A DNA stretch of 64,000 nt from an uncultured Gammaproteobacteria bacterium (GTDB taxonomy: Bacteria > Pseudomonadota > Gammaproteobacteria > UBA9214). Position numbers and translations under genes: made by a program. The stretch covers positions 32,001 to 96,000 of the forward strand of contig CAVVHS010000008.1 of assembly GCA_963748215.1 (NCBI GenBank). The letters are read 5' to 3'. Below the pieces are notes generated by a model, which worked only from the letters and a program-made list of their open reading frames with translations, was not told where the DNA came from and did no database searches. Positions 30,183-52,147 of the stretch are shown here, in pieces; the stretch's first letter is position 1; every line of letters starts with the position of its first letter.

Positions 30183-31045
30183 TGCTGATCGAGGTCCTCG
30201 ACGAGACGCTGCTGCACTGCGTGCGCGCGGCGCTGGCGGAAGATGTCGGCCCGGGCGACATCACGGCCGACCTGATTCCCGCCAATCGCCAGGCGCAGGC
30301 CACGGTCATCGCGCGCGAGGCCGCGGTATTGTGCGGTATGGCCTGGTTCGACGCCGTGTTCGCGGAACTCGATACTGCCATCACGGTTGACTGGCGTGTA
30401 AAGGACGGCAGCCGCATCGAGGCCGACCAGACGCTGTGCACGCTGGCGGGGCCGGCACGCGCGATCCTCACCGGCGAGCGGACCGCGCTGAACTTCCTGC
30501 AGACGCTGTCCGGCACCGCCACCCTCGCCAATCGCTACGCCGCACGCGTGGCCGACCTGCCGGTGCAGGTTCTCGATACGCGCAAGACCATTCCCGGCCT
30601 GCGCGATGCACAGAAATACGCCGTGCGCACCGGCGGCGCGAGCAATCACCGCACCGGCCTGTTCGACGGCATCCTGATCAAGGAAAACCACATCAGCGCG
30701 GCCGGCACCATTCGGCAGGCCGTGCAGGATGCCGCACGGCTGCATCCCGGCATCCTGATCGAGGTGGAGATCGAACGGCTGGAACAGATCGACGAGGCCA
30801 TCCCGGCCGGCGCCGGACGGCTGTTACTGGACAACTTCAACCTCGCGCAACTCGCCGACGCCGTGCGCCAGGTCGACGGACGCGTGCCACTCGAGGCCTC
30901 CGGCGGCGTCACCCTCGACAACCTGCGCGACATCGCCCTCACCGGCGTCGACTTCATCTCCGTCGGTACGCTCACCAAGCACGTGCACGCCATCGACCTG
31001 TCGATGCGCTTCGAGAAACCGGGGTCAGAGAGCAATTGTGGCTAA
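30182..31045 (+). CDS. nadC: Quinolinate phosphoribosyltransferase
   Basis: ALAEDVG, ERTALNFLQ, DTRKTIPG, LIKENH, EASGG. Confidence 0.96.
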   Translation: MLIEVLDETLLHCVRAALAEDVGPGDITADLIPANRQAQATVIAREAAVLCGMAWFDAVFAELDTAITVDWRVKDGSRIEADQTLCTLAGPARAILTGERTALNFLQTLSGTATLANRYAARVADLPVQVLDTRKTIPGLRDAQKYAVRTGGASNHRTGLFDGILIKENHISAAGTIRQAVQDAARLHPGILIEVEIERLEQIDEAIPAGAGRLLLDNFNLAQLADAVRQVDGRVPLEASGGVTLDNLRDIALTGVDFISVGTLTKHVHAIDLSMRFEKPGSESNCG

Positions 31046-31052
31046 TATTTAG

Positions 31053-31182
31053 GGAAGCTCTGATTAATCCGTCATTCCGGGCGAAGCGCAGCGGAGACCC
31101 GGAATCCAGGTGTTACAATTCAGGCCGTTACTGGATTCCGGCCTGCGCCGGAATGACGAGCATTGAATTAATCAGAGCTTCC
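31053..31182. mobile_element. MITE with IS5-like ends (second copy)
   Basis: TTAG|GGAAGCTCTGATTAAT...ATTAATCAGAGCTTCC|TCAG; internal GTCATTCCGG...GGAATGAC. Confidence 0.8.
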
Positions 31183-31364
31183 TCAGTAACTATATTCTCT
31201 GACACCAATCATTCGTTCGGTCTATGCACGAGGCCGTCGTGTATATCAGACAAAAAGAATCACACCCACGCTGGTACGCGGGGTGTGATAGTGGCAAATA
31301 TTCGGAGGAGAATTATTATGCTGCCACTGGTTAGTACGATAGCGATATAAATACCCTGTGGATA

Positions 31365-31850
31365 TTGTCCTTTGGTATGAACAGCATCGACGAAATCGCG
31401 GACACCTCGGCACTGGAATTTTCCTACGCGACGCCGTACGAGACCGATACGGACCTGGTCATCCTGATCCAGGGCGCGGGGGAAATTCCGAACGGTGCCT
31501 ACACGACGACTGCAACCTCGGCCCATCTGGCAGTGACGACGCCGACGGAGTTCCTCGTCATTCGTTGCGTCGTCAACCTTATCACCGCCGACTTCAACTG
31601 CGCCCCCACGACTCCCGTCACGTTCGATCTCACCTGGGTCAGGAACGGCCTGGGGTCGGTGTTAGAAAAAACGAAGCGAACAGAGACTCTCGGGCCAGTC
31701 ACCACGAAATTCAAGGGGGAATACGTCAGCGTAGCGGCGACCGTGAACGGGATATGGAACGGACATTCCCCGGCGGACCTTGCCGGGAATCTGCTGGACA
31801 GCCAGAGTACGACGCACATTCGGGAAATCACGCTGGAGGCGAACCCATAG
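31365..31850 (+). CDS. Hypothetical beta-rich protein, possibly 5'-truncated
   Basis: 161 aa Thr-rich ORF with coding-like codon usage; weak start. Confidence 0.6.
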   Translation: MSFGMNSIDEIADTSALEFSYATPYETDTDLVILIQGAGEIPNGAYTTTATSAHLAVTTPTEFLVIRCVVNLITADFNCAPTTPVTFDLTWVRNGLGSVLEKTKRTETLGPVTTKFKGEYVSVAATVNGIWNGHSPADLAGNLLDSQSTTHIREITLEANP

Positions 31851-31889
31851 CGCTGTAATGCACTTGCTTTCAAAAATGGTTTTGGTGAA

Positions 31890-32441
31890 TTGGAGGCGGG
31901 CACCGCGCTTGAAATGCTCCGTGGCACAGCACAGAATGCCGGTGTGAGTGAACAGTTAACCCTGAAAGAGCTGCAGCAGCAAGCCATCGCATTCCGCATG
32001 GCGTTCGATTCCGTCATGCTGTCGACCACTTCCCCGGAAGGCATACCTGATGCCAGTTATGCACCCTGCATACTCGATGGCGAGGGTCGGTGTCACGTCC
32101 TGATCAGCCAGCTTGCCCGGCATACGAAAAATCTGGAGTTACACCCGATAGCAAGCCTGATGTGGATCGAGGACAAGACATCGAGCCGAAATCCGTTCGC
32201 CCGGCGCCGCCTGGTTCTTCAGTGCAACGCTGAAAATATCGAGCGTAACAGCAAGGTCTGGATCCGCATCCTGAAGCAAATGGAGGAACAGCTCGGCAAT
32301 ACGGTGCAACTGCTGACCAGACTGCCGGACTTTATGCTGTTTCGTTTCGACGCCGTCGAAGGCAACTATGTACGTGGTTTTGCGCAGGCGCACCCGGTGA
32401 CCGGTAACGACCTCGTCATGGCCAGACGCAGAACCCGATAA
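31890..32441 (+). CDS. HugZ/HutZ-like pyridoxamine 5'-phosphate oxidase family protein
   Basis: LSTTSPEGIPDASYAP, ISQLARHTKNL, FARRRL, LPDFMLF, YVRGFAQA. Confidence 0.85.
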   Translation: MEAGTALEMLRGTAQNAGVSEQLTLKELQQQAIAFRMAFDSVMLSTTSPEGIPDASYAPCILDGEGRCHVLISQLARHTKNLELHPIASLMWIEDKTSSRNPFARRRLVLQCNAENIERNSKVWIRILKQMEEQLGNTVQLLTRLPDFMLFRFDAVEGNYVRGFAQAHPVTGNDLVMARRRTR

Positions 32442-32841
32442 GCCTGGCGGACCGATAGGTGCGGGGTCGGACCAACGTATGCTGTTGAAGCCACTTGGGT
32501 TATCCTCCAGATTACCGCCCGTGGAACGCTTAAGCGGAGCATTTCATAGAGATTATGAGCAATCTAACGAAACTCGCCTTCGGAAGTAGCTCTGCAGCCG
32601 CGGGATGCAAGCTCGCTTAGAACATGTTTTGAGTATGAATTGGCGCTTCCAAGGTGTTCTTTCGCCCCGCATTGCGAGTATTTGGATCGACCGGTCAGGT
32701 TGTTGCGCTGGTCTGACCAAATGTGCGCTTCCTCGCTATCGACCTGGCGATGCGCTTCGAACCGGCATGAAAAAGCAGATTGGGAAATCCTGGCGGCCGT
32801 ATCGACGTCGTCTCATGGCCAAGCCCGGAAACCCGTCACAT

Positions 32842-38579: not shown

Positions 38580-38948
38580 ACGAGATTCCTTCGCGCACCG
38601 CATCCGCTCCTACCGGTGCTGGCGCCTTGTGTGCCTGAAGGATATTGGATTTTATTTTTCCGTGTTCTTCCGTGGATTCCGTGGCCGTTATTTTTGTAGG
38701 GTGCACTCCGTGCACCGTTCGCCGGTGCGTAAAACGCACCCTACGCCCGGGCATTATGTTTCCGTGTTCTTCCGTGGATTCCGTGGCCGTTATTTTTTTG
38801 TAGGGTACACGCCGCGCACCGCTGCCGATGCGTAAACGCACCCCACGTCCGGGCATTATTTTCCGTGTAATTCCGTGTGCTTCCGTGGCCATTATTTTTT
38901 GCAGGGTGCACTCCGTGCACCGCTATCGGCGCGTAAAACGCACCCTAC
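38580..38948. repeat. Tandem REP mosaic between convergent pilE and ispH
   Basis: Three alternations of TTCCGTG..TTCCGTGGCC with GTAGGGTGCAC..GGTGCGTAAAACGCACCCTAC doublets. Confidence 0.88.
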
Positions 38949-39892
38949 TACTCCTGGTCGCGTTTCAGCTCCGACGGCAGCGAGAAGGTCACCGGCTCCT
39001 TTCTGCCCGCGGTCTCCTCGACCGTCACGGCGCCCCAGGCACGCAGCTGTTCCACAACACCGGCGACGAGCGCCTCCGGCGCGGAAGCCCCGGCGGTTAC
39101 GCCGACGGACTGCTTGCCGGCCAGCCACGCCGGCTGTATCTGGGATGCCTCGTCGATGAGGTAGGCCGGTATCCCGCTGTTCTCGCCCAGTTCGCGCAGC
39201 CGGTTGGAATTCGAGCTGTTCGGCGAACCGACCACCAGCATCACGTCGCAGCGCGCGGCCAGGTTCTTCACCGCATCCTGGCGGTTCTGGGTGGCGTAGC
39301 AGATGTCGTCCTTGCGTGGCCCCTGGATGGCGGGAAAACGCTGCCTGAGCGCATCGATCACGCGCTCGGTATCGTCGACCGACAGCGTAGTCTGGGTCAC
39401 GAAGGCCAGATCGTCCGGGTTCCGTACCGATAGCAGCCGCACGTCTTCCGGCGTCTCGACCAGGTACATCGCGCCACCGTTGCCGGTGACATACTGCCCC
39501 ATGGTGCCCTCCACCTCCGGGTGGCCCTTGTGGCCAATCAGGATGCATTCGCGCCCGGCCTCGCCGTGGCGGCTGACCTCGAGGTGCACCTTGGTCACCA
39601 GCGGACAGGTCGCATCGAACACGCGCAGCCCGCGCTGGCGGCCTTCCTCGTGCACCGTCCGCGCCACGCCGTGCGCGCTGTAGATCACGGTGCCGCCATC
39701 CGGTACCTCGTCGAGCTCGTCGACAAATACCGTGCCGCGGGCGCGCAAGCCCTCGACCACATGGCGATTGTGCACCACCTCGTGGCGTACATAGATCGGT
39801 GCGCCGAACAGTTCCAGCGCACGCTCGACGATCTCGATGGCGCGATCGACACCGGCACAGAAGCCGCGCGGATTGGCAAGCAGGATTTTCAT
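38948..39892 (-). CDS. ispH: 4-hydroxy-3-methylbut-2-enyl diphosphate reductase
   Basis: [37 protein letters not shown]. Confidence 0.97.
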
Positions 39893-40574
39893 GAGTTGTC
39901 CGGTTTGACTAACGAGTGAATTATAGGCCGTAGCGGACCGCGACTGCCAGGAAACAACCATACAGGGCAAAGGGATGCCGTGTTTTGCTCTCAACATTGT
40001 TGGCCAGTACAAAACCAGCCCGGCCTGTCCTTGTTCACCGCATCCTGTATGGCCACCTGGACTTGGCATGACCGGGTGATCCAATTCCGTCAATGAATAC
40101 AGGCCGGGTTCGGTCAGCAACAGACATATAGCGGACATCAACCACCAGCTCTGATAATGCTGAGCTGTACTTCCGGGTACGGTCATAAGTTGCGGTTCCC
40201 CGTACACAGAAATTTCTGCTGGTGCGGGGTATCTGATCGGCGACTACCAGCCAGAATCGATGGACCGCCGAACAACTAACGAATGGCCGGCTCTTGTGAT
40301 TGTTGACGTTCGGGTTCCAGTTGTAACGGGGGATCGACGAACCTGAGGTATCGATCGCGCGGTAAAACTGCCTTGGGGCGTACCACAGTAAGATGGATTA
40401 CGCAGTTTCCGAACGGTACATACACTCGTGCACTTTTTTCCTGTTTTCCAACGCAACTTCCCTTTTACCTCTGATGCAAACGCAAACCCCCTGTCGAGCA
40501 GGGGGTTCATGAAGCTGAAGAACTATCCCGATCAAGCGAACGCCTATGTTGTCAGCAGGCGTCCGCAAATACTG

Positions 40575-41006
40575 TTACCTATAGCCACCCGGATTGCCGC
40601 CGTAACCACCCGGACCGCCGCCATAGCCGGGACCACCGCCATAGCCGGGACCGCCGCCATAGCCGGGACCGCCGCCATAGCCGGGACCGCCGCCATAGCC
40701 GGGACCGCCGCCATAGCCGGGACCGCCGCCATAGCCGGGACCCCCGCCATAGCCGGGACCGCCACCATAGCCGGGACCGCCACCATAGCCGGGACCACCG
40801 CCATAGCCGGGACCGCCACCATAGCCGGGACCACCACCATAGCCGGAACCACCACGATAATCATCATAACGATCATTATCATTATTACCGCCCATCCACT
40901 TGGATGGATTCATCATATTGCCCATATCCACCGCACTGGCCTGGTGCGCAAGCAGTAAGCTGGCCGCTAAAATAATTACCCTGAATTTGATGTCCTTGTT
41001 TTGCAC
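40575..41006 (-). CDS. Secreted Gly/Tyr/Pro-repeat protein, sulfur-globule-protein-like
   Basis: GGAGGA RBS, GTG start, signal peptide ending ASA, MMNPSKWMGG, then GYGGGP repeats; downstream hairpin near 40484-40507. Confidence 0.75.
   Translation of the reverse strand: MQNKDIKFRVIILAASLLLAHQASAVDMGNMMNPSKWMGGNNDNDRYDDYRGGSGYGGGPGYGGGPGYGGGPGYGGGPGYGGGPGYGGGPGYGGGPGYGGGPGYGGGPGYGGGPGYGGGPGYGGGPGYGGGPGGYGGNPGGYR
40612..40853. repeat. 18-bp coding tandem repeat, 13 copies
   Basis: CCATAGCCGG recurs every 18 bp from 40621 to 40837. Confidence 0.97.
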
Positions 41007-41489
41007 TGTATCTTCCTCCGCATAAATGTAATTGCCACTGGACAAACGATGCTACCGGTCTTGCTCACGACTAATCGCAATCGTCAGCAAGGTCGCGAGC
41101 GCGATGCTCAACCAATGAGTTTTATGTGCGCTTCCATTCGAAACACTCTCCGTTCAAGCAGTCCTCGAGCGAGGATTACATGATAATTATCATCCATTCC
41201 AATCGGGTTGTCTGTTCGTTGGCGTACATATTGCCTGTTTGGTCCAAACATGGCTGCGGGTGTGTGCGCTGGAAAATGCCGCATTATGTAGCCGCCGCCT
41301 AACATTATCTTCCACGCGACTGTTTAGCGATTACTTATACAGATTCAGCCTCGAGGTCGCATTCCGGCCAATACACAATATGCAGCACTACATTTATAAT
41401 GATGACAAAAATCATTAAATCCTGACAACGCCTCGTGGCATGGATTACTGTGTATTCATTAATTAGCGGCGTTTCAAGCAGATTGGCCT

Positions 41490-43010
41490 ATGAATGCTAA
41501 AGATGCCGGTGTAGGCATACAGTTCCCCAGCACCCAAGACGGCCATCGAAGCTCCATGGCTGCCAGTAAGGCAGTATTGGCCGCCTCCGTACTAGAGCTC
41601 GACCCGGGACTAGCCGAAGCCATTCAGACAGAACCCAACTGGCATAATCACTACGGACGCTATCTCGTAGACATGGTTCGGCTCTCAGCACGCAGCGACG
41701 CCGCGGCCGTTTCCATTGCGCACAATGGCCTGACTTCAGTTCACGGATCATTCCAGTTCGTCCGCGATGGCGATCAAATGACAGTGCGAGAAGCAATGCA
41801 TCGATTCCGCGAACCGCGTATTTACACCGGCACCATCCATGGAGAGGGGGAGCGACAGAAGCACTTGCAAATACCCTACCGGGATGGATTGCTAAGCGGC
41901 GATGCCCTGAAAAACCAGGTCGATGTCTGGGCACAGAACGGCATCATGGAACCCTCTGCTGCAGAGGCCCTGCACTGCCTCAGCAACCGGAGTGATTGGC
42001 TAGACCTTCGCGATATGCACTTTGTTTTATTGGGTGCTGCGGCCGAGATTGGGCCCATCGAGATGCTTAGCCGGCTGGGCGCCAATATCGTTGCTGTAGA
42101 TAAAGACCAACCGGCTATTTGGAAGAAACTCCTGCGCATCGCTCGGGAGGAGGCTGGATTCATGCAATTTCCCTTGCGTGAACCGTTGCCTGAAGATGCG
42201 GATGACGAGAGCCTGGCCGCTGTCGCCGGTAGCGACCTGTTGACCGCGGCACCCGAGATCCGAACCTGGCTTGCGGCCCTGGATCGTGCCTTCTGCATCG
42301 GTGGCTACGCTTATATGCACGGCCAGAATCACCTGCGTGTGGAGGTGGCGATGGATGCCATCATGGATGATCTGACGTCGCAGCGCAGGGACATCGCCCT
42401 GGCATACCTCCTGACACCAACTGATGTGTACTTGATACCTGATGAGGCCGCACAGGCGGCACGCGAGGACTTTGCACAGGCAGGCATGAGTCGCCTGTGG
42501 CGCGATCCACTGAGGGTACTGACCAAGGGTCGATTGTATGCACCAAATGCCGAATATGACATTAGCGACTTGCATGGCAACCACTATGGGCTATACGACG
42601 GAGTCATACCTCTCCAGGGGCCTAACTATGCATTGGCAAAGCGTATTCAGACATGGCGTGCTCTAGCGGCCCGCACCGCAGGACACCGAGTGTCTGCCAA
42701 CGTCGCCCCTTCCACCACCACTGCCTCGGTGTTAACACGATGGGATTTTGCAGCCGCCTACGCGGGTGCTGGATACTACGGCGTAGAGACTTTCGAGCCT
42801 GCAGCCACTAATGCAATTATGGCGGCGCTGCTTATACATGACTTGCGCAATGACGATTGCCTGGCCAATCCGGCCGTGGCGTTGCCCCACCCTCTGGCGC
42901 TGTTCATGAACGAGGCAGTGCACGGTGGCGTATGGAGGATTGGACTTCAATTACGTTCGGTAATCGAAATCGCGGCTATTAGAGGACTTATTTCTCACCC
43001 GCGCAGGTAA
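41490..43010 (+). CDS. Uncharacterised 506 aa protein with Rossmann-like and YxxxK motifs
   Basis: FVLLGAAAEIGP...IVAVD; QGPNYALAK. Confidence 0.8.
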   Translation: MNAKDAGVGIQFPSTQDGHRSSMAASKAVLAASVLELDPGLAEAIQTEPNWHNHYGRYLVDMVRLSARSDAAAVSIAHNGLTSVHGSFQFVRDGDQMTVREAMHRFREPRIYTGTIHGEGERQKHLQIPYRDGLLSGDALKNQVDVWAQNGIMEPSAAEALHCLSNRSDWLDLRDMHFVLLGAAAEIGPIEMLSRLGANIVAVDKDQPAIWKKLLRIAREEAGFMQFPLREPLPEDADDESLAAVAGSDLLTAAPEIRTWLAALDRAFCIGGYAYMHGQNHLRVEVAMDAIMDDLTSQRRDIALAYLLTPTDVYLIPDEAAQAAREDFAQAGMSRLWRDPLRVLTKGRLYAPNAEYDISDLHGNHYGLYDGVIPLQGPNYALAKRIQTWRALAARTAGHRVSANVAPSTTTASVLTRWDFAAAYAGAGYYGVETFEPAATNAIMAALLIHDLRNDDCLANPAVALPHPLALFMNEAVHGGVWRIGLQLRSVIEIAAIRGLISHPRR

Positions 43011-43105
43011 CTATGCTGATAGCTGTACGGAGGTCCGAAAAGGTCGGTTCCCGGTCACGCGTCTAATTTACTCGGTTATTCCCCCTGGAATTTCCGAGAA
43101 TGGCC

Positions 43106-43324
43106 GATAGTGTTGAAAAACTCCGTTTCCTGGCAGGTAGAGAAAATATTAGCCTGTTAAAGGTGTCACGACTCTGAACACATAGGGAGACAGTAGTTGT
43201 GGCACAATCCCTTTGCAAACAGCCTGTGGAGAACCGTGACATTCAACTGATTTTGAATATCTGATCGAAATCGATTTGAGAAGTAATCCAGACTTACAAA
43301 CTTTTCGAGTTTTTCAACACAATC
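43106..43324. mobile_element. Non-autonomous IS1182-like MITE
   Basis: GGCC|GATAGTGTTGAAAAACTC...GAGTTTTTCAACACAATC|GGCC, no ORF inside. Confidence 0.8.
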
Positions 43325-43352
43325 GGCCAACTCCTGACCTACAGCGCGATGG

Positions 43353-43376
43353 AAAACGGCCCCGAAGGGCCGTCTT
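43353..43376 (-). terminator. Intrinsic terminator after the VPLPA-CTERM gene
   Basis: ACGGCCC-TTCG-GGGCCGT-TTT on the minus strand. Confidence 0.7.
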
Positions 43377-43385
43377 ATAGAACTG

Positions 43386-43979
43386 TCAAGATACTTGCTT
43401 ACGTCTTGCTATCCCAACCAGTCCCATTAGGCCGGAGCCGAAGAGCCACACTGTAGCAGGCAGCGGCACTACGGAGGTGGTGACCGTCAGCGTCCAGGGT
43501 TGTGCAGGGAAAACCGTGCCGGCCGAAAGCTGGAAGTCCCAGATAGCCCCAAATGTAGTTTGGCTTAACGGCCCGGTTTCCGGCCCAAAGCTGTCAAAAA
43601 ATGACGCCGAGATGCTAGCACCCGAAGTGACGTTATTGAAGTTGTCATCAAACAGATTGGCCACATCATTGTATAAGTCAGTGGTCATGTTCTGACCAAT
43701 GTTGAAATCATCAAACGGCGCCGCAAATGACAGAACGATGCTGTCGACGATCAGATTGGCCACCTGTGTGAATCTGACTCGATCAGTTTCAGCAGGCGGC
43801 GTTGCGTTGATCGAGCCTAGGATCTGGTTGACACCTGCCATAAGGTTCACATTGGTGCTGCCAATAGCGTCCAGGTCACCGTTTACAGATTCGTCGTAGA
43901 TTGTTACCGCGAATGCAGAGCCCACCGACAAGACAAGTGCGGCACCTGTGATAGCACATGCCAAGGTTTTATAGTTCAT
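43386..43979 (-). CDS. VPLPA-CTERM (PEP-CTERM-type) exosortase substrate
   Basis: Signal peptide; C-terminus VVPLPATVWLFGSGLMGLVGIARRK. Confidence 0.92.
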   Translation of the reverse strand: MNYKTLACAITGAALVLSVGSAFAVTIYDESVNGDLDAIGSTNVNLMAGVNQILGSINATPPAETDRVRFTQVANLIVDSIVLSFAAPFDDFNIGQNMTTDLYNDVANLFDDNFNNVTSGASISASFFDSFGPETGPLSQTTFGAIWDFQLSAGTVFPAQPWTLTVTTSVVPLPATVWLFGSGLMGLVGIARRKQVS

Positions 43980-44293
43980 TAATGATCTCTACGTGAAATT
44001 AGTTGCGGCACTGGTTTCCCAAATGCCGTGACTCTTATTCATGATGAATATCTGCAGGACTTACAGTTGTGATAATTTCGACTAATCCTGGGTTTTCTGT
44101 ATGACCGATGTCACAAATACAAACAAACCCATCCGTCAGAAGCATTAACGATAATCAAAATGACCGTACCCCCGTAATCCGACCCTGCTCGGGTTCCGGG
44201 GTACGGTCACGCCCGCCGGCTAGACTTGGTTACTTCAACACCAATCAAAAGAAGCGGCCCGAAGGCCGCTCATGTTGGTTGTGAAAACAGCAC

Positions 44294-45226
44294 TTAAGGT
44301 ATAATGGGCGGGAAATCGTAAACTGTATTGGCACCGGCAATAACAGTCACTGTGGCCTCGCTAAGGAAGTTGACAGTCGCACTGTCATCATCAACTACCG
44401 GATCATCTGCCATGGCATCACAGGTAAAGGCAATGTGGTAGTCTCCCTCGGATAGAAATGCGACCTTATAGTTGTATACACCGTCATCAGGAACCAGTGC
44501 CGAGGTAATTGGATCCGGGCCACCACCCGTCCCGTCTTCGTCGTCAGGCGCTCCAGCTGTGCCATCATGGAACACGTAGACAGCACCGCCGCAATTACCA
44601 CTGGCAAAGTAACCTGGATCTATGCTTCCTGATAATGTCCCAACTTCTGTGTTATCCACGATCCGAAGTGTTGGACGCAGTATATAGTCACTGCTGCCGA
44701 CCGGGTCATGCACTGACTTACGCAGATCAAAATCAATTGTGAACTCGGCCATGCCGCCAGCGGGCACAACAAAACCTCGGTTCAGCTTAAGCCCGCTTTC
44801 ATCACCACTCGGAATACGTAGCTCGTACTCCTGGCCAGCGACTACGATGTAGGAGTCACGCACGTTCTGTTTCGCGTTGACCATGAGTCTTAACCAGTTG
44901 TACTGGCCTGAGGGTAAAGTTTCATTATCGAGAATCAAGTCGGAAGTCCCGCCTGTCAACGTCATCAGGTCAATCTGACAGGATGCCGGGTCCAGGGCAC
45001 AACGGTCAGTAAAATCGAATGTGATGCGCGCCCCGCTGGCTGGCTGCAACTCCACACCATAGAACTCGACGACGACTTCGTCAGCACTGTCAACAGGGGC
45101 ATCTGTAAGTCCTAGGCTTAGCGAGCCTGTTGATGCGCCACCACCACCGCCGCCACATGCCGCAAGCAAGAACGTCAATCCGGCGGCAGACATAAGGTTG
45201 ATAAAGCTGGATCCTGCATTTCTCAT
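44294..45226 (-). CDS. DUF4382-like lipoprotein
   Basis: LAAC lipobox, LSLGLTDAPVD, IPSGDESGLKL, TIDFDLRKS, YILRP. Confidence 0.88.
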   Translation of the reverse strand: MRNAGSSFINLMSAAGLTFLLAACGGGGGGASTGSLSLGLTDAPVDSADEVVVEFYGVELQPASGARITFDFTDRCALDPASCQIDLMTLTGGTSDLILDNETLPSGQYNWLRLMVNAKQNVRDSYIVVAGQEYELRIPSGDESGLKLNRGFVVPAGGMAEFTIDFDLRKSVHDPVGSSDYILRPTLRIVDNTEVGTLSGSIDPGYFASGNCGGAVYVFHDGTAGAPDDEDGTGGGPDPITSALVPDDGVYNYKVAFLSEGDYHIAFTCDAMADDPVVDDDSATVNFLSEATVTVIAGANTVYDFPPIIP

Positions 45227-45416
45227 AAACTTTTACTCTTTCCTGGTGGTTAACTCATCAACTATCCTAGAATCAGACCAGCTTACATAGTGTGAGCTTG
45301 GCAGGATAAATGTGTGGTTATCACTTCAGACCACAGGCAGACATCCGTTGATTTCACATCGATTGTTACTTAAATACTATATGACTCGAAGCAGAGACTG
45401 CTGAAAACCGATTCGA

Positions 45417-45734
45417 TCAACAGTGTCCTTTTTTCCTGTGGCCGGGCGGGCAATGGTAGTAATAAGGCTGGCTTCTCCGAGGTGGAGCATACTCGTGATG
45501 AACTCTCTGCGGTGGATATCGATGAGTGTGCCCGTCGGTAGTAACTGCCGCTCCAACGGCTCCACCGAGCGCACCACCTAGAATGGCACCATCACGACCA
45601 CCGATCTCGTTACCAATGGCTGCGCCGGCGGCACCACCGATGCCGCCGCCGATTGCCGCGTCCAATGTTGAATTATCTGCGTTCACTTCAACAGCTATAA
45701 GCATGACTGCTAGAGCACAATATTTTATCTTCAT
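45417..45734 (-). CDS. Glycine-zipper domain protein
   Basis: Signal peptide, GGGIGGAAGAAIG...GGALGGAVGAA, CPPGHRKKGHC. Confidence 0.85.
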   Translation of the reverse strand: MKIKYCALAVMLIAVEVNADNSTLDAAIGGGIGGAAGAAIGNEIGGRDGAILGGALGGAVGAAVTTDGHTHRYPPQRVHHEYAPPRRSQPYYYHCPPGHRKKGHC

Positions 45735-46299
45735 GGGATTAAACGTCCTGGCTTGGGTTAATTATAATTTGCATCATCTTCAATTGTTCCTGGTAATAGG
45801 GTGACCTTGATCACAGTCCAGTTCAGGTATTCGATACTGCCACATAGCTAACTTGTTACCTGTCTGTAAAAGTCTTGATTACAATTGGTCGGCCATTACC
45901 AGCATGAAGTGAGGAAACGGGTATCTTTTCATGATGCACAAGCTCATATCGACCACGTTTCGTCAAATATTACAGCATAAGGCAATTCCTATACCAATGA
46001 CTGAGATGCCATTAGAAAACACTTAGTTACACGGATCTGGTTTGATCTGGGCGAAATACTCACCCCGTAAAAAATGCCGTATGCGTCGTTGAACAAAGAC
46101 ACAAATATACATTCGATAGCTAACATGCTGATGCGGAGGAAATTAATCTGTACCTACTGGACGACATGTCGAGGTAAAGACCTATTGTCAGTAGCTATCA
46201 GCAGTGGTGGAGATAAGCGCGCCTACTGTTGAGGTAGTTCCTATTCAGATAATCGTCATGTATTGCATAACTATACAGCGCCATCAGAACTGAATGAGC

Positions 46300-46525
46300 A
46301 GGTCCGTTTACGACATGTACCGCGACATTCAGCCCGAAACGACGGACTTCTGATTTGGGTCGACTCCCGCCGATTAGCGAAAGTTTATATAAGCGTCTCA
46401 TGTAGGACGGGAACCGGCCAGCTCTCGCCCTTCCCGGGCGAGATGCGAACGGTGAAAATGCAGCAATATTTGCCGTTCCCGTCATACAGCCTTTAGTTCA
46501 GAGAATGAGCTGTGATTGTCATTCA
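46300..46525 (+). repeat. Array of degenerate ~30-bp hairpin units
   Basis: Units near 46300, 46345 (TTGGGTCGACTCCCGCC), 46404 (CGGCCA), 46447 (GAACGG-N20-CCGTTC). Confidence 0.6.
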
Positions 46526-46561
46526 TCCTTGCGCAATGCCGACATGAGACGACATGGCTCC

Positions 46562-47962
46562 TTAATTAATCAATGCCTTAGCTATCACGTCAACCGCCTT
46601 TATAAGCTCGATCCGAAAGCGGTCTGCTCCGCCCGAACCACAGAACCGTCCCAGATCAGAACAAGCAGATTCTGGCTGCACAATTTGCTGCAACCATTCA
46701 ATCCCTATTTCTTCCTTTGAGTGCCATGCATTGCTATTTGTATAAGTAAGAAAGGCATCATATAACGTTGGTTCTCTGAAGGTACCTTTAACTCGCGCAC
46801 GTACTGCAAGTTCGAAGCAATAGCCGCCCTCTTGATTGCATTGCCTAAATTGAATCCTCTGGAGAATCAACTCGAGTGCGCCATCTTGTAGTGAATATTC
46901 TTCATCACTTGCATGATTACTTAACTCGACTGCTAAAGTATTCCCAGCTTCCCTCGCTCTTTCTGCAACGCGTCTACCCAATAGATTGGGGACGTCGATA
47001 CTGTGCAATTCATTAACCAGTTGCTCTATGCAAGGACCCCAAGCCTGCTCCGCAGCGGCCACCTCAGAGGTCTCGAGTGCAGCAGCAAACGGCCAGTAAG
47101 CGAAAGCCAGCAATATCAGCCCGCCGCATCCAGGGCCATAGCAATTGCCACCATAGCGTGAGTCACCCCCCCCGAAGTAACGCTCATGCGCTTTCGCCTT
47201 CCAGTCCGGATAATCAAGGTTCTTGCCGTTTCCGGTCACAATCCTTACGGATTGCAGAAGGGATAATTCATGCTTAGATAAGGAACTTCCGTATCGGGAT
47301 ACCAGAATCTTCTCGAGTCTTCCAAATTCAGGGAAGTTCTGTATAGCAATATCAGTTGCAGCCTCAGTTTCGTCATTCAGTAATACTTCACTACTGCATG
47401 CCTTGTACTGGATATCAGCATGTCGTGTGGTACAAGAGATATGTATAGAACCTGCATAAATGATCGGTTTTTCGGGAGGAACATTAATCCAATAGCTGGG
47501 GCGGCGATTGGATCCATCTGAATCTCGCCATGTTCCTTCTGTGCCATACGGGGTATCAATGAGTATACGATAGCTCCCTGGTTCTAAAAGCAGATAGCGC
47601 CATCCCGCTTTTTGTGCCTCCTCTGACGGCGCATTATTCTTCACCACAGGTATAAACTTGGGCGGCAGAGTGGTAATTCTCACCGGTATCAGTCTAATAA
47701 ACGTACGATCCCAACCAGTCTCCCAGGCCATTATTGGTTTACCGTCATCGGTACCCGAGATACGAAACAAAACGATCGACTTAGCATTGAGCCGAACTGC
47801 AGCTGCTTCACTGGGTGTCAGTTCTCGCACCGGAATCATTGTGCAACTTGGCAATACCACCTGCACAAACAGAATGAATATCATATATATCTTGAGCGGG
47901 CGGTAGCTACCTTGTCGTACCCTGATCGTCCAGCACAATGGGGTTTTGTATTTGGAGTTCAC
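46562..47962 (-). CDS. Hypothetical lipoprotein-like protein
   Basis: 466 aa low-GC ORF; LPSC lipobox suggests a start near 47884; internal TM segment. Confidence 0.7.
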   Translation of the reverse strand: MNSKYKTPLCWTIRVRQGSYRPLKIYMIFILFVQVVLPSCTMIPVRELTPSEAAAVRLNAKSIVLFRISGTDDGKPIMAWETGWDRTFIRLIPVRITTLPPKFIPVVKNNAPSEEAQKAGWRYLLLEPGSYRILIDTPYGTEGTWRDSDGSNRRPSYWINVPPEKPIIYAGSIHISCTTRHADIQYKACSSEVLLNDETEAATDIAIQNFPEFGRLEKILVSRYGSSLSKHELSLLQSVRIVTGNGKNLDYPDWKAKAHERYFGGGDSRYGGNCYGPGCGGLILLAFAYWPFAAALETSEVAAAEQAWGPCIEQLVNELHSIDVPNLLGRRVAERAREAGNTLAVELSNHASDEEYSLQDGALELILQRIQFRQCNQEGGYCFELAVRARVKGTFREPTLYDAFLTYTNSNAWHSKEEIGIEWLQQIVQPESACSDLGRFCGSGGADRFRIELIKAVDVIAKALIN

Positions 47963-48264
47963 TCCGGAATCTCGTATTAGCTCAGACGTGCGCTATTGTC
48001 CCGAAAATCGTGATTCAAAATAAATCATGGCCATCATCACCATCAGCATCGACCCGGGTCAATACCAATCCAAGGCCTGAAACAGAAAGATCAGTGTAGT
48101 ATCATCAGCTTCGCGAAGAAACTCGTTATTTGGGAATTTCTGACGGTAAAAACAGGTACTTTCGTCTTGAGTAGGAAGCTGCCTACCAGAGCCCGAGCCG
48201 GCAACGGCGTCTTTCAGTGCATTTTCACCGTATAGTCCCTATTTCTGGACGGCAACTTCGGGTC

Positions 48265-49941
48265 CAGACTGTGTGAAAACTCGCTTCATTACTCATTTTG
48301 AAGCGATGCCACAGATCATAGCGCATTTTTCCATATGACCCACTGAGAGGGCGTTCCAGGTGCGAGCATTGCCGGCCTTGCGTGTAAACACTTTCACTGC
48401 CGAGAGATGCTGTGGTACTGCGAGAGCGGTAAAAACGGCCCTGATCAGGCCATCTGCATCTTCAGCATCAGTCCTTCAACACCGAATATACTCATGGCGC
48501 GTTTCAGATTGTAAGCCAGCACATGCAGGCTCATTTCCGTGCTGACATGTTTCAGCGTTTTCATCTGAAAGTGGGTGTGTCCCACCCAGGCTTTCAGCGT
48601 TCCAAAAGGATGCTCTACTGTTTGCCGACGCACCCGCATACGCTCTGGATGTTTATCAAGTCGGGCCTGGAGTCTCTCGATGACCACCTCGTGCTCCCAA
48701 CGAGTCACACGCCGCTCCTTGCCTGGCGTGCACCTGGCTTTGATCGCGCACTGCCCACACACCGAAGTCCAATAACGATAGATCTTCAGTCCATCCTGGA
48801 TTGAGCTCATATGGTTAACTAATCGCTCGCCCGCTGGACACTCGTACTCGTCGTCTTCAGGCTTATAGACAAAGTCACGTTTGTCGAAATAGCCTTTGGT
48901 CTGTTTGTTGGATGTCTGAGGCTTTGGTAAATAGGTCGTAAGCCCGGCTTCGTCGCAGGCTCGTATCTCCTCGTTGCTGAAGTAGCCACGGTCAGCTACC
49001 ACTTCGAGTTCATCGGCACCTATCGCTTCTCGCGCCTGCTCGGCCATGGGTGAGAGCTGGCTCCGGTCATGACCGACGTTCGTTACTTCGTGGGTGACAA
49101 TGATATGGTGCTTCGTATCGACCGCCGTCTGGACGTTGTAGCCGACTATCCCGGAACCACGGCCACTCGTCGCCATCGAGCGAGCATCCGGATCAGTCAG
49201 GGAAATCTGCTGATCAGGTACAGCCAGCATCTCAACTTCGAGCGCCTTTAGCCGTGCTATCTCTCCCTTCAAGATCTCAATCTTCTCCTTCAGTCGCTGC
49301 GACTTGTTTTCCGCCAACTCCGATTCTTGGCGATCAACGCTCTCCATCTCAGAGAAATACCGCGCAATGCTTTCATCAATCTGCTCGAGACGACGCTTTA
49401 ACTTCGCCTTCGTGAAATTCCGGTCACGATTGTTCACAGCCTTGAACTTGCTGCCATCGATAGCGACAAACGCATCAGTAAACAGCTCCAGTTTGCGACA
49501 GATCAGCACAAACTCCCGGCAGACCTTCTGGATGGCTTTGCTGTTATCTTTCCGAAAATCGGCAATGGTTTTGAAAGCAGGGGCTAATCGACCGGTTAAC
49601 CACATCAGCTCAACATTGCGCTGCGCCTCCCGCTCCAGACGACGGCTGGACTGAACGCGGTTCAGGTAACCGTAGATATAGATCTTGAGCAGAGTGGCAG
49701 GATGGTAGGGAGATCGCCCGGTGTCTTCAGGTACAGTTCTGAAACCGAGTGCGCCCAAATCCAGTTCATCAACAAACACATCAATGACACGAACCGGGCT
49801 GCTTTCGGCAATGTAATCATCAAGCCGCTCCGGGAATAATGTGGCTTGTGTCCTGCATTCTCCTTCAATAAAACCTGTCATTTCACGGCTTTCCTGAATG
49901 AAAGCCGTATTATATCGATTCCAGAGTTTTCACACAGTCTG
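48265..49941 (-). mobile_element. IS1182-family insertion sequence, 1677 bp
   Basis: Perfect 18-bp TIRs CAGACTGTGTGAAAACTC; GGTC duplicated at 48261-48264 and 49942-49945. Confidence 0.95.
48445..49881 (-). CDS. IS1182-family DDE transposase
   Basis: SSRRLERE, TIADFRKDN, IDGSKFKA, TDPDAR, ADRGY, VEHPFGTLK. Confidence 0.96.
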   Translation of the reverse strand: MTGFIEGECRTQATLFPERLDDYIAESSPVRVIDVFVDELDLGALGFRTVPEDTGRSPYHPATLLKIYIYGYLNRVQSSRRLEREAQRNVELMWLTGRLAPAFKTIADFRKDNSKAIQKVCREFVLICRKLELFTDAFVAIDGSKFKAVNNRDRNFTKAKLKRRLEQIDESIARYFSEMESVDRQESELAENKSQRLKEKIEILKGEIARLKALEVEMLAVPDQQISLTDPDARSMATSGRGSGIVGYNVQTAVDTKHHIIVTHEVTNVGHDRSQLSPMAEQAREAIGADELEVVADRGYFSNEEIRACDEAGLTTYLPKPQTSNKQTKGYFDKRDFVYKPEDDEYECPAGERLVNHMSSIQDGLKIYRYWTSVCGQCAIKARCTPGKERRVTRWEHEVVIERLQARLDKHPERMRVRRQTVEHPFGTLKAWVGHTHFQMKTLKHVSTEMSLHVLAYNLKRAMSIFGVEGLMLKMQMA

Positions 49942-50130
49942 GGTCGGCTCCCGTCGATTGGCGAGTTCTTATATAAGGATTTCATGTAGTACCGGGTTCG
50001 GACAACAGTTGCCGTTCCTTTAACGCAGTAAACTCGCTGATGCGGGTTATCTAATCGGCGACTATCGGCCAACTCCTGACCTACACGGACGACCAGCGAA
50101 GGGCAACTGTGCCGCAGAAGTTGTCGTTCC
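49942..50130 (+). repeat. Array of degenerate hairpin units (continues 48150-48264 across the IS)
   Basis: Reconstructed GACGG-CAACTTCGGGTCGGCTC-CCGTC; further units near 49986, 50054, 50098. Confidence 0.6.
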
Positions 50131-50370
50131 CGCCCAGTTAATGGTAATTCAGTAACCAGCCACAGACTATCCTTCCCTGGTGCAGTAATCCTGCTCCGAC
50201 TCCCTGTTAATGCAAGGAGGGATTCTTTGCGCCACTGCATACCGCCTGGATTCTCTCTTGTAGTTCCGTGTGTTTTTCACTGCTGTTTTCATTTCTCGCC
50301 TCGTTATGGCATTTTACCGCTTTAACCCGGTGTACGGATTTGGCAGACCACTTCAGTTCAAGGTGACATC

Positions 50371-50778
50371 ATGAGATATATACATACCGGTTCAGTGGCA
50401 CGTACCACCCTCATAACACTGGCCGCCATTGCGGCCTTTTTAGTGGTTGCAATCACGTTGTTGCCCAAAGGGTTTAGCAGCGACACCTCCGTTATCGGAC
50501 AGGGTTCCCATGTCGTCGTGCTTGCTCACAACAAGGAATCGATGTATAGCCTGAACCTCATGGACTCGCTGAATAAAGTTCGTTCTGAATATTCCGATCG
50601 AATTGAATTTCGAGTAGTTGATATGAACACACCGCAAGGACAAGCGTTTCTCCAGCAACAACAAGTCCGATCCGTCTCCTTACTATTTTTCGCGCCAGAC
50701 GGCACGCGGCAACGCGTCGTCAGCAACATCGATGACGAAACCGAATTGCGTGCGAGCCTGAATTCAATTTTCAATTAG
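50371..50778 (+). CDS. Membrane-anchored thioredoxin-like protein without CXXC
   Basis: N-terminal TM, IEFRVVD, LLFFAPDG; no Cys. Confidence 0.7.
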   Translation: MRYIHTGSVARTTLITLAAIAAFLVVAITLLPKGFSSDTSVIGQGSHVVVLAHNKESMYSLNLMDSLNKVRSEYSDRIEFRVVDMNTPQGQAFLQQQQVRSVSLLFFAPDGTRQRVVSNIDDETELRASLNSIFN

Positions 50779-50855
50779 TCGTAAATACGACTTTCCGTCA
50801 ATAGCAGCAAGCAAAACCGGGGTCAGAACACAGTTTTCGCGTATAGCAACTTACG

Positions 50856-51095
50856 GGGAACCGGGTTGGGTCGATGGTTGCAGTCTAGAATCCGACCCGG
50901 GAACGGCAACTTCCAGTACTTTCCTGCCATCCCCAGGAATATCGGGAAAGACCGACCAGGGTCGTTCTTACTCGTTAAGCTCCTGATTATATAGGCAGTG
51001 GCTAAAGGTCGTAGTTGGGTCGACTCCTGCCGGTAAGCGAAGTCTTATATAAGGGTTTTATGCAGTACCGTGATTGGTGCAAAAACGGGCCGGAT
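50856..51095 (+). repeat. Array of degenerate hairpin units
   Basis: GGGTCG cores near 50868, 50959, 51017; CAGTAC-core unit near 50901. Confidence 0.6.
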
Positions 51096-51142
51096 ATATT
51101 TTGCATACGGGCATCCTGCAGCATGGCGCCGCACCCCTCCGC

Positions 51143-52147
51143 CTACGAACACGACAACATCCGGTGCAGTACGGCCATTTGCACCAGCATCCGGTTACGA
51201 GCCTCTGCGATAACCACACTGCGCTGCCCGTCGATCACGTCATCCGTAACGGTGACGCCGCGGCGCGCCGGCAGGCAGTGCATAAAACGGCAGTCGCCGG
51301 CGGCATTCCCGAACCAGGTTTCGTCCACACACCATTTACGCAGATCGAGCTTGAACTCTTCTTCTGTGCGTTTGTTACCGTAGTGGCGCGCGGATGCCCA
51401 GGAACTTGCATAGATAATCCGGCTGCCCTGCATCGCATGGGATCGATCATCTGTCTCCGTCACCGATCCACCACCGATTGCAGCCGCACTGCGTGCCTTG
51501 TCCATGATGGCGTCCGGCAACCCGAATCCCTCCGGTCTCAATACCGTGACATCCATTCCTCGCAAGGCAGCCATATGCAGCGTTGCCGCGGGTACCGACA
51601 ATGGCAATGCTTGCGGGTGCCAGGTCCAGGCCAGCACGAACTTGCCGTTATTGGCAGGCACGCCCAGATCGTCCATGGTTTTCCAGTCGGCAAGACTCTG
51701 GCACGGGTGATTGATTGCCGACTCCATGTTGATGTACGGCACTTCGACCAGAGAGGTCAATTCACGGAATTCGCGATCAGCAAGGTCATCATCGAGATTT
51801 TCTCTTCGCGCAAACGCGCGAATGCCTATGGCATCACTGTAAGATGCAATCACAGGAACCGCCTCCCGGATATGCTCGGCCGCAGCGCCGTCCATAACGA
51901 TACCCGACCGCGATTCTATGCCATGAATCGACATGTTCGGTGAAACGACAAAGGTGCCACCCCCCATTCGGGCCATCGCCGCCTGAAACGAAATCAGCGT
52001 CCGCAACGAGGGGCTCAGGAAAAGCAGCGACAGCACCTTGCCCTCCAGCGACCGCGGTTCCGGATTTTCATGAAGCCTGCCAGCCAGCGTCAGCAGTTCG
52101 TTTATTTCAGCAACACTGAAATCCGCCAGGTCATTAAAGCATTCCAT
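51143..52147 (-). CDS. N-acetyl(or succinyl)ornithine carbamoyltransferase, ArgF' type
   Basis: FLSPSLRT, EHIREA, MESAINHPCQ, WTWHPQALP, HCLPARRG, EARNR. Confidence 0.88.
   Translation of the reverse strand: MECFNDLADFSVAEINELLTLAGRLHENPEPRSLEGKVLSLLFLSPSLRTLISFQAAMARMGGGTFVVSPNMSIHGIESRSGIVMDGAAAEHIREAVPVIASYSDAIGIRAFARRENLDDDLADREFRELTSLVEVPYINMESAINHPCQSLADWKTMDDLGVPANNGKFVLAWTWHPQALPLSVPAATLHMAALRGMDVTVLRPEGFGLPDAIMDKARSAAAIGGGSVTETDDRSHAMQGSRIIYASSWASARHYGNKRTEEEFKLDLRKWCVDETWFGNAAGDCRFMHCLPARRGVTVTDDVIDGQRSVVIAEARNRMLVQMAVLHRMLSCS

Follow-up and report, generated by a model that had tools for sequence, protein, structure and literature searches.

Co-oriented mosaic repeat units at the borders of gene-block turnover in an uncultured gammaproteobacterial genus

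Several described bacterial systems bear a likeness to the repeat arrays reported here. Neisserial intergenic mosaic elements (NIMEs) are RS elements lying between dRS3 repeats, and dRS3 is the target of a known phage recombinase. The BOX elements of Streptococcus pneumoniae have a modular boxA-boxB(n)-boxC build, and a CALIN is a cluster of attC sites lacking an integrase. In the sections of the literature that treat the build of NIME arrays, these are 50-150-bp repeats between short inverted repeats that vary in number, have received opportunistic insertion sequence (IS) elements and flank variable genes for surface proteins; the same sections propose that they promote exchange with incoming DNA through a proposed recombinase (PMC1797815). 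Repetitive extragenic palindromes (REPs), in the relevant section of one report, are 20-40-nt palindromes that alternate in orientation within bacterial interspersed mosaic elements (BIMEs) (PMC2817692), and a section of another describes REPs tagged with GTAG (PMC3733652). Here, we characterize a family of repeat units that punctuates a variable, low-GC island in a 64-kb window, the whole stretch of DNA analysed, taken from the 3.5-Mb genome of an uncultured gammaproteobacterium (contig CAVVHS010000008.1; the genome is G000 below). We see about an even chance that the units are a genus-specific mosaic intergenic repeat family of the NIME/BIME kind, one that marks, and probably promotes, the turnover of gene blocks. 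A new and lineage-specific family is the best fit, set apart from the NIMEs by a strongly conserved core, strict co-orientation and a different host.

The core of the family, which we term U1, is ~80 nt long and occurs in three copies (A1 to A3) in the window, all on the + strand and all within the island (Table 1). Each of two U1 motifs matches the window three times, against expectations of 0.56 (three or more matches in 2 of 100 shuffles) and 0.02 (in 0 of 100); taken alone, 11-mer motifs are too common to be informative. U1 holds a conserved imperfect palindrome, GAAATC-TTATATAAG-GATTTC, with an AT-rich centre and arms of ~6-13 nt, and GTAG is nearly invariant in the alignment of copies. 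Further units of 60-67 nt lie around U1, with GGGTCG, CGGCCA(A/G) or GGACAA as their edges. Tandem Repeats Finder reports no tandem array in the window, whose units are too diverged for it. The two units that follow A2 have counterparts elsewhere in the genome, at 301545-301618 (91%) and 295653-295723 (83%) on contig 8 and at 212558-212604 on contig 9 (89%).

An earlier note on this DNA, made by a model from the letters alone, had described runs of ~30-bp units on the + strand as candidate sites of a non-integron cassette system. The natural unit is longer, at 60-85 nt. Repeats do occupy most of the places listed there (46300-46525, 48150-48263 with 49942-50130, 50856-51095 and 40236); the one near 41353 matches nothing else in the genome, and 43030-43345 is mostly a 229-nt miniature inverted-repeat transposable element (MITE) and also contains a 25-nt unit fragment that ends shortly before the terminator of the PEP-CTERM gene (43350-43380). 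The hairpin GAACGG-N20-CCGTTC is present exactly as the note had it. Its second hairpin, GACGG..CCGTC at 48248, is not local: it reads as a left inverted-repeat arm that pairs with 50011-50022, on the far side of U1 and an IS element. The uniform + orientation holds for the three U1 cores and fails at 48199-48231, an inverted copy of the 46449-46481 hairpin (76% complementary). The units do separate unrelated genes, and the motif counts against shuffled controls bear out the presence of a real repeat.

The family extends well beyond the window. Iterated nhmmer searches found 21 U1 copies in G000, arranged as five clusters and five singles, with three of the clusters on the contig of the window (this one included), one on contig 9 and one on contig 7. 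The 2-kb segments around these copies have a mean GC of 0.518 versus 0.605 for the genome. Within the genus, blast detects U1 in 14 of 36 further species; outside it, none of 16 sampled genomes from other genera of the class has a match. An exact U1 pattern matched 25 times in species-representative genomes, all of them metagenome-assembled or single-amplified genomes of uncultured bacteria (21 Gammaproteobacteria, 3 Pseudomonadota and 1 'uncultured bacterium'). Between species U1 is ~80% conserved and its flanks are unrelated; the species concerned have ispH genes that are 75-85% identical, so that U1 may be under constraint or may have spread recently.

Change in the arrays proceeds one unit at a time, by copying, loss and reshuffling. 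The units occupy the 3' flanks of genes within low-GC islets that vary between strains, and some unit types read as intrinsic terminators on the opposite strand. Three different strings of units follow the orthologous SPOR-domain gene in G000 and in two other species of the genus, G008 and G006, and the left and right halves of U1 combine in four ways in the alignment. In G006, a 67-nt unit stands in tandem in 5.1 copies. In another species, G023, two 132-nt copies lie 1.4 kb apart and are 97.7% identical, with sharp ends (GGGTCG...TTCGGCCA), ~9-nt imperfect terminal inverted repeats (GGGTCGACT / AGTTCGGCC), unrelated flanks and no visible target-site duplication. A search for empty sites of single copies gave nothing, the flanks from other species having no counterpart in G000. 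Two further repeat elements, a ~130-nt element (L056 7567-7700, contig 1 of G000) with more than 20 copies in the closest relative of G000 and a 61-nt element (L052 2611-2671, contig 9) with at least 5 copies at 88-97% identity, illustrate that these genomes are rich in intergenic repeats.

Unit edges also receive insertions, in all three cases examined: the IS element, the MITE and a second MITE in a tRNA island on contig 8. The IS sits in the GGGTCG edge of A2, with a 4-bp duplication, GGTC, inferred from the sequence, and splits what is a single array into 48150-48263 and 49942-50130. The first MITE lies at a unit edge, between TGG and CCAAC, with an inferred 4-bp duplication, GGCC, and its inverted repeats are related to those of the IS.

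Such features invite comparison with the NIMEs and the 'minimal mobile elements', as far as the published sections on these cover them. In both, units of many families (50-150 bp there, 60-85 nt here) are joined at short motifs and vary in number, IS or small elements insert opportunistically, the arrays adjoin variable and often surface-protein genes, syntenic spots carry different genes in different strains, and recombination with incoming DNA has been proposed. The two are unrelated in sequence. Edge motifs of 6-8 nt, not inverted repeats, take the place of a dRS3-type 20-bp inverted repeat, no phage or IS110-type enzyme is tied to them (the three IS110-family copies in G000 lie away from all U1 and 67-nt-unit matches, with none near any array), and in our family the core is ~80% conserved across species and orientation is uniform within each array. 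BOX elements, also unrelated in sequence, share the modular A-B(n)-C build in intergenic DNA, with one module tandemly repeated a variable number of times; we know of no BOX elements that bound variable gene blocks or are co-oriented in clusters.

Where relatives differ in gene content, the differing stretches have their ends at units or next to them. In G046, the closest relative (97% and 93% amino-acid identity for IspH and the ornithine/aspartate carbamoyltransferase, OTCase, respectively), the ispH and OTCase genes are only 485 bp apart, with an unrelated spacer and no island; homology with the window is lost at 39963 and returns at 51098, 2 nt past the tail of A3. A locus on contig 7 spans 9.2 kb in G000 versus 2.76 kb of different DNA in G046, with its left breakpoint inside a unit common to both species and its right breakpoint at the edge of a shared U1. 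At 16-23 kb on contig 8, G046 has other DNA in place of a 6.9-kb segment that holds three U1 copies, and both breakpoints are within ~50-140 nt of units. Between G008 and G006, the SPOR-gene block and its downstream unit share 90.7% identity over 518 nt, compared with 74.8% for the ispH genes of the two, a single-gene baseline.

Public metagenomes provide a view at the population level. Among contigs from sediment and marine samples that carry sequence of the window island (aligned at 90% likeness), some from two runs belonging to two studies (X3 and X4) connect 46452 to 50109 through an identical insert of five letters. The two positions are homologous, each in one of two hairpin units of like orientation, and the short side of the joint is 38 nt. 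Another contig (X4) leaves the window sequence exactly at the unit edge 46415, and loose ends at 39963 and 51098 reproduce the island-less form found in G046. We take the 46452-50109 contigs as evidence for alternative unit junctions in nature rather than as proof of a clean deletion. The alignment covered runs other than X7-X20, whose small word shares may reflect the IS alone. A scan of metagenome contigs for an alternative junction with a 38-nt stretch of the window gave 0 matches. Six other joints (46485 to 51005, 51031 to 46385, 50105 to 43410, 40925 to 44161, 43129 to 43302 and 48282 to 49924) were set aside as cross-mapping between repeats, given their short sides of 20-35 nt or letters from paralogous copies.

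The orientation of the units is strict. All 22 neighbouring U1 pairs within 6 kb (E<=1e-6) are co-oriented (p=5e-7), including 11 of 11 in G000; at a looser threshold a single opposite pair appears, in G008, where one copy is cut by an IS200-like element. Orientation follows neither genes nor replication. On contig 7, + genes are followed by + U1, and at 16-23 kb on contig 8, + genes are followed by - U1; by GC skew, the contig 7 cluster and two contig 8 loci lie on the G-rich strand, and the window and contig 9 clusters on the C-rich strand, which rules out a replication-linked orientation of the type seen with IS200/IS605 insertion. Strict co-orientation of this kind would be expected if insertions copied the orientation of a resident site. 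It is one of the reasons to consider a dedicated non-integron cassette system, in which the units, the U1 palindrome or the GAACGG...CCGTTC hairpins would be sites for a trans-acting site-specific recombinase that inserts and excises gene blocks in one orientation. The conservation of U1 amid unrelated flanks is consistent with such a system, as are its imperfect palindrome, the reassortment of its halves and the position of both contig 7 breakpoints in shared units. The 46452-50109 joint, found in two studies, lies on the loop side of homologous hairpins that have too little identity for homologous recombination. We nevertheless consider a dedicated cassette system unlikely.

No tyrosine or serine recombinase was found in or beside any U1 cluster. 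The 79 neighbouring open reading frames (ORFs) in G000 gave two mobile-element matches (one DDE transposase and one rve) and no recombinase, and 80 neighbouring ORFs in other species gave seven mobile-element matches, five of them in one junk-rich locus. In G000 the tyrosine recombinases are limited to XerC, XerD and an intI interrupted by an in-frame TGA, and serine recombinases are absent. Nor does intI track U1: among genomes with U1, 9 of 15 have an intI scoring above the family cut-off, compared with 9 of 22 among those lacking U1 (p=0.32); this and the other co-occurrence tests (Fisher, four gene candidates, 37 genus genomes) are rough, as related genomes are not independent. The flanking inverted repeats are not specific to each copy, and tandem units of 60-67 nt and gene-less 132-nt copies would be odd for recombination sites. 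The earlier proposal of sites or scars of a capture mechanism is plausible as regards sites or scars; no capture enzyme emerged, either in cis or from genus-wide co-occurrence, in searches that covered intI, two genes for RAYT-like proteins (REP-associated tyrosine transposases) and serine recombinases. Also against capture, the 132-nt copies and 67-nt tandem arrays multiply without any gene, one carrier of units is a classical tRNA-Thr island, and a relative of one gene from between the arrays, the 466-aa gene, occupies a unit-free hotspot in G046.

We also compared the units with known classes of site. Like integron arrays and CALINs, the low-GC arrays here consist of co-oriented sites between unrelated genes, most of which look promoter-less, with no adjacent integrase and an intI elsewhere in the genome; unlike these, the units lack R''/R' boxes and copy-specific stems, and they enclose blocks of several genes, on either strand, of up to 3.4 kb. 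In agreement with the earlier note, the units are not attC sites: for 15 copies, neither strand yields a consensus fold (alifold -1.7 and 0.0), R''/R' boxes in register are absent, and across 56 copies cognate flanks have a mean score of 11.18, the same as non-cognate flanks (11.18; p=0.57). Nor are they CRISPR arrays, as whole units, their 'repeat' and 'spacer' parts alike, are conserved between loci and species, and no cas genes are found among the neighbours. The genome does possess a true chromosomal integron (contig 2, 80000-98350), whose classic attC sites are unlike the units, a further point against a cassette role for the latter. Its intI is above the NCBIfam cut-off and has the in-frame TGA at an expected Trp; the low-GC cassettes that follow it hold ORFs that by eye resemble toxin-antitoxin and acetyltransferase genes, and the array contains an IS110-family element.

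Other identities were likewise rejected. Rfam returned only two sub-threshold, unrelated matches, which together with the missing consensus fold argues against a structured RNA, and folds of single copies as single-stranded DNA share no common hairpin. Mimicry of tRNA or tmRNA 3' ends fails, with a best match to the U1 head of 13 nt (E 0.19). The host has a dif-like site on contig 6 (438289-438316, two mismatches to the pattern), neither arm of which resembles the U1 palindrome by eye; the site is a candidate chromosomal dif, and the maximum of the cumulative GC skew of this contig lies at ~515 kb instead. A likeness of the GGG at the U1 head and of a TAAG stretch end to Tn3-family terminal repeats is not borne out, given co-oriented copies and a genome devoid of Tn3 transposases.

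A second possibility is that these are selfish or neutral repeats only, a MITE- or REP-like element combined with minisatellite-type expansion in dispensable AT-rich spacers, with co-orientation arising by local duplication and by en-bloc inheritance or transfer of islets. Consistent with this are the discrete 132-nt copies with short imperfect terminal inverted repeats, the 67-nt tandem array, the location of units in low-GC patches, the fact that close relatives differ by whole islands rather than by single cassettes, and the movement of one island by a tRNA-att mechanism. Part of U1, including its GTAG tag, also resembles an array of GTAG-type REPs next to a RAYT-like gene of contig 2 (by eye, TGTAGGA.CGG.ATC). 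That gene (111500-112450) is flanked by these REPs in one orientation at ~48-nt spacing. As in BIMEs, our units form mosaic intergenic arrays in 3' flanks, with GTAG and a short REP-like stretch in U1; they differ in being 60-85 nt long, co-oriented and present at ~20 per genome, with no match to RAYT flanks and no RAYT co-occurrence. Each RAYT-like gene, this one and four others, has flanking inverted repeats of its own, and blast of these flanks against the units gave only 13-14-nt matches (E 0.025-0.06). Of the 15 genomes with U1 and the 22 lacking it, 6 and 3, respectively, have the contig-9-type RAYT-like gene (p=0.12), and 7 and 11 have the contig-2-type (p=1.0). Measured as MITEs, the 132-nt copies have terminal repeats that are short and imperfect and no target-site duplication, and the orientation of U1 is non-random: co-orientation in 22 of 22 pairs is unexpected for MITE or REPIN insertions. 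Local duplication fails to explain the arrays because the genes between units are unrelated, and the conservation of U1, with the constraint or recent spread that it suggests, also sits poorly with neutrality. On balance, we regard a purely selfish or neutral origin as unlikely.

A third explanation would make the units regulatory or architectural DNA, with U1 an operator or nucleoid-protein site and the other units terminators or insulators for co-regulated surface-protein genes. The conserved palindrome at the centre of U1 would suit this role. The consensus of the 67-nt unit, read on the opposite strand, has the GC-rich stem and following T-run of an intrinsic terminator. U1 is downstream of an oppositely running gene in 11 of 15 clear cases (from ORF maps), and many neighbours encode secreted or surface proteins (PEP-CTERM, Gly-zipper, DUF4382, SPOR, Lcl_C and Hcp-PEP-CTERM). 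However, housekeeping-type metabolic genes (zwf, gnd and aldolases) are also among the neighbours, the distance from U1 to the next start codon ranges from 114 to >600 nt, and neighbour orientation varies. U1 shows no sigma-70 or sigma-54 promoter-like spacing in a consensus read by eye, with no promoter tool, and has no consensus RNA fold. A regulatory role would, moreover, leave co-orientation independent of gene strand unexplained, and we find it very unlikely.

Our preferred reading is a mosaic repeat family that marks and probably promotes turnover. Units are joined head to tail at short edge motifs (GGGTCG, CGGCCA), and in our model co-oriented units would serve as preferred junctions for the deletion, insertion or replacement of gene blocks. 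Recombination between units could be of the short-homology or illegitimate kind, or could be aided by a putative trans-acting protein that binds the U1 palindrome. On this view gene-block turnover would give rise to the arrays and be promoted by them in turn, without the arrays being the sites of a dedicated capture enzyme.

Several observations weigh against this model. NIMEs and BIMEs do not show strict co-orientation, the feature that ordinary repeat biology explains least. When U1 cores are compared in pairs (276 pairs), the longest stretch of exact identity has a median of 11 nt, and only 6% of pairs reach 20 nt or more, which argues against RecA, as exchange of the RecA type between arbitrary copies would be inefficient; this point also favours a cassette system. 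The causal role in gene turnover is putative, as no protein partner was found, and if every islet spacer holds units, breakpoints will fall near units by default. The metagenome joints may reflect a mosaic locus of a related strain instead of a simple deletion. One unit-carrying region (293.7-302.3 kb on contig 8) is a tRNA-Thr(tgt) island that is bounded by a perfect 46-bp direct repeat and missing from G046; its units lie in the interior of the island and are not its att sites. Finally, a homolog of the 466-aa gene of the window island (61% amino-acid identity) occurs in G046 at another hotspot, on a contig that has no units.

Both of these loci have features of their own. The tRNA-Thr island (contig 8, 293654-302300, 8.55 kb), which adjoins the 3' end of the tRNA gene, has no integrase left and carries an IS, an Hcp-PEP-CTERM fusion, a TetR gene and a class-II aldolase-Dabb fusion. 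The G046 hotspot corresponds to window positions 31045-32830, between nadC and a terminator-ended gene, where G000 has two small genes instead; a ~130-nt near-perfect, MITE-like inverted repeat lies at 31060-31200.

The window island itself (Table 1) has a GC of 0.47-0.57, compared with 0.61-0.70 in its flanks, and no tRNA gene borders it. Its right neighbour is itself patchy, with a carbamoyltransferase of its type (E<=1e-60) in only 7 of 31 genus genomes. The Gly-rich repeat protein is a secreted Gly/Tyr/Pro-rich protein whose gene contains an 18-nt coding tandem repeat (40612-40850; 13.3 copies, 95% matches). Upstream of the PEP-CTERM gene, at 44161-44216, is a hairpin repeat with an 11-bp stem (GACCGTACCCC...GGGGTACGGTC) that has copies on contigs 2, 6 and 9.

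Table 1. Repeat units, mobile elements and genes of the island and its borders (positions in the window; IR, inverted repeat)
Feature	Position	Strand	Evidence and remarks
Variable low-GC island	39964-51097		Between ispH (LytB) and the OTCase gene; missing from closest relative G046
U1 core copy A1	46346-46428	+	nhmmer E 9.8e-22; GGGTCG at 46357; centre ...TTATATAAG...GTAG
U1 core copy A2	49939-50013	+	nhmmer E 7.8e-17; both U1 motifs match
U1 core copy A3 plus tail	51009-51095 (core 51009-51077)	+	nhmmer E 2.3e-14; island ends 2 nt beyond
Degenerate unit-like sequence (TTGGCCAG)	from ~40000		Left edge of island; by eye
Left-edge unit(s)	40166-40253	+	76% identity over 88 nt to 49985-50071; 86% over 36 nt
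CGGCCAAC-type unit fragment, 25 nt	43319-43343	+	96% identical to 50061-50085
CGGCCAG unit	46415-46481	+	Ends in hairpin GAACGG-N20-CCGTTC (46447-46478); alternative metagenome junctions here
Units upstream of A2	48150-48264		Include left IR arm GGACGGCAACT (48248-48258) and inverted hairpin copy 48199-48231
Two units after A2	50014-50133	+	Start GGACAAC... and CGGCCAAC...; second ends in hairpin homologous to 46447-46478
Degenerate unit (GGGTCG at 50868) and clear U1-like unit (GGGTCG at 50948) ahead of A3	50868-51016	+	Alignment with copies sharing the upstream block
IS element	48265-49941	-	DDE_Tnp_1 + DUF772 transposase 48445-49881 (Pfam); 19-nt perfect IRs 48264-48282 and 49924-49942
MITE, 229 nt	43106-43324		23-nt IRs 43101-43123 and 43307-43329, 96% complementary
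ispH/LytB, left neighbour	38948-40207	-	ORF; Pfam
Gly-rich repeat protein	40575-41045	-	ORF; Pfam scan
506-aa protein, no Pfam match	41490-43010	+	ORF
PEP-CTERM protein	43386-43979	-	Pfam
DUF4382 protein	44294-45226	-	Pfam
Gly-zipper protein	45417-45734	-	Pfam
466-aa protein, no Pfam match	46562-47962	-	ORF
135-aa protein	50371-50778	+	ORF
OTCase, right neighbour	51143-52147	-	Pfam

These arrays offer an independent example, in an uncultured gammaproteobacterial genus, of the mosaic arrays long suspected, notably in Neisseria, to promote the exchange of neighbouring genes. A conserved palindromic core, strict orientation, breakpoints on units at the level of both species and populations, and alternative junctions in nature make the question testable here. 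There is also a practical consequence, as contigs break at units, which affects the assembly and binning of such genomes. Were a dedicated cassette system at work after all, co-oriented arrays would have been built by a non-integron route in at least 15 species of the genus. If a protein partner exists, the units would represent a new route of gene capture; if none exists, they would show how far plain repeats can organise the turnover of accessory genes.

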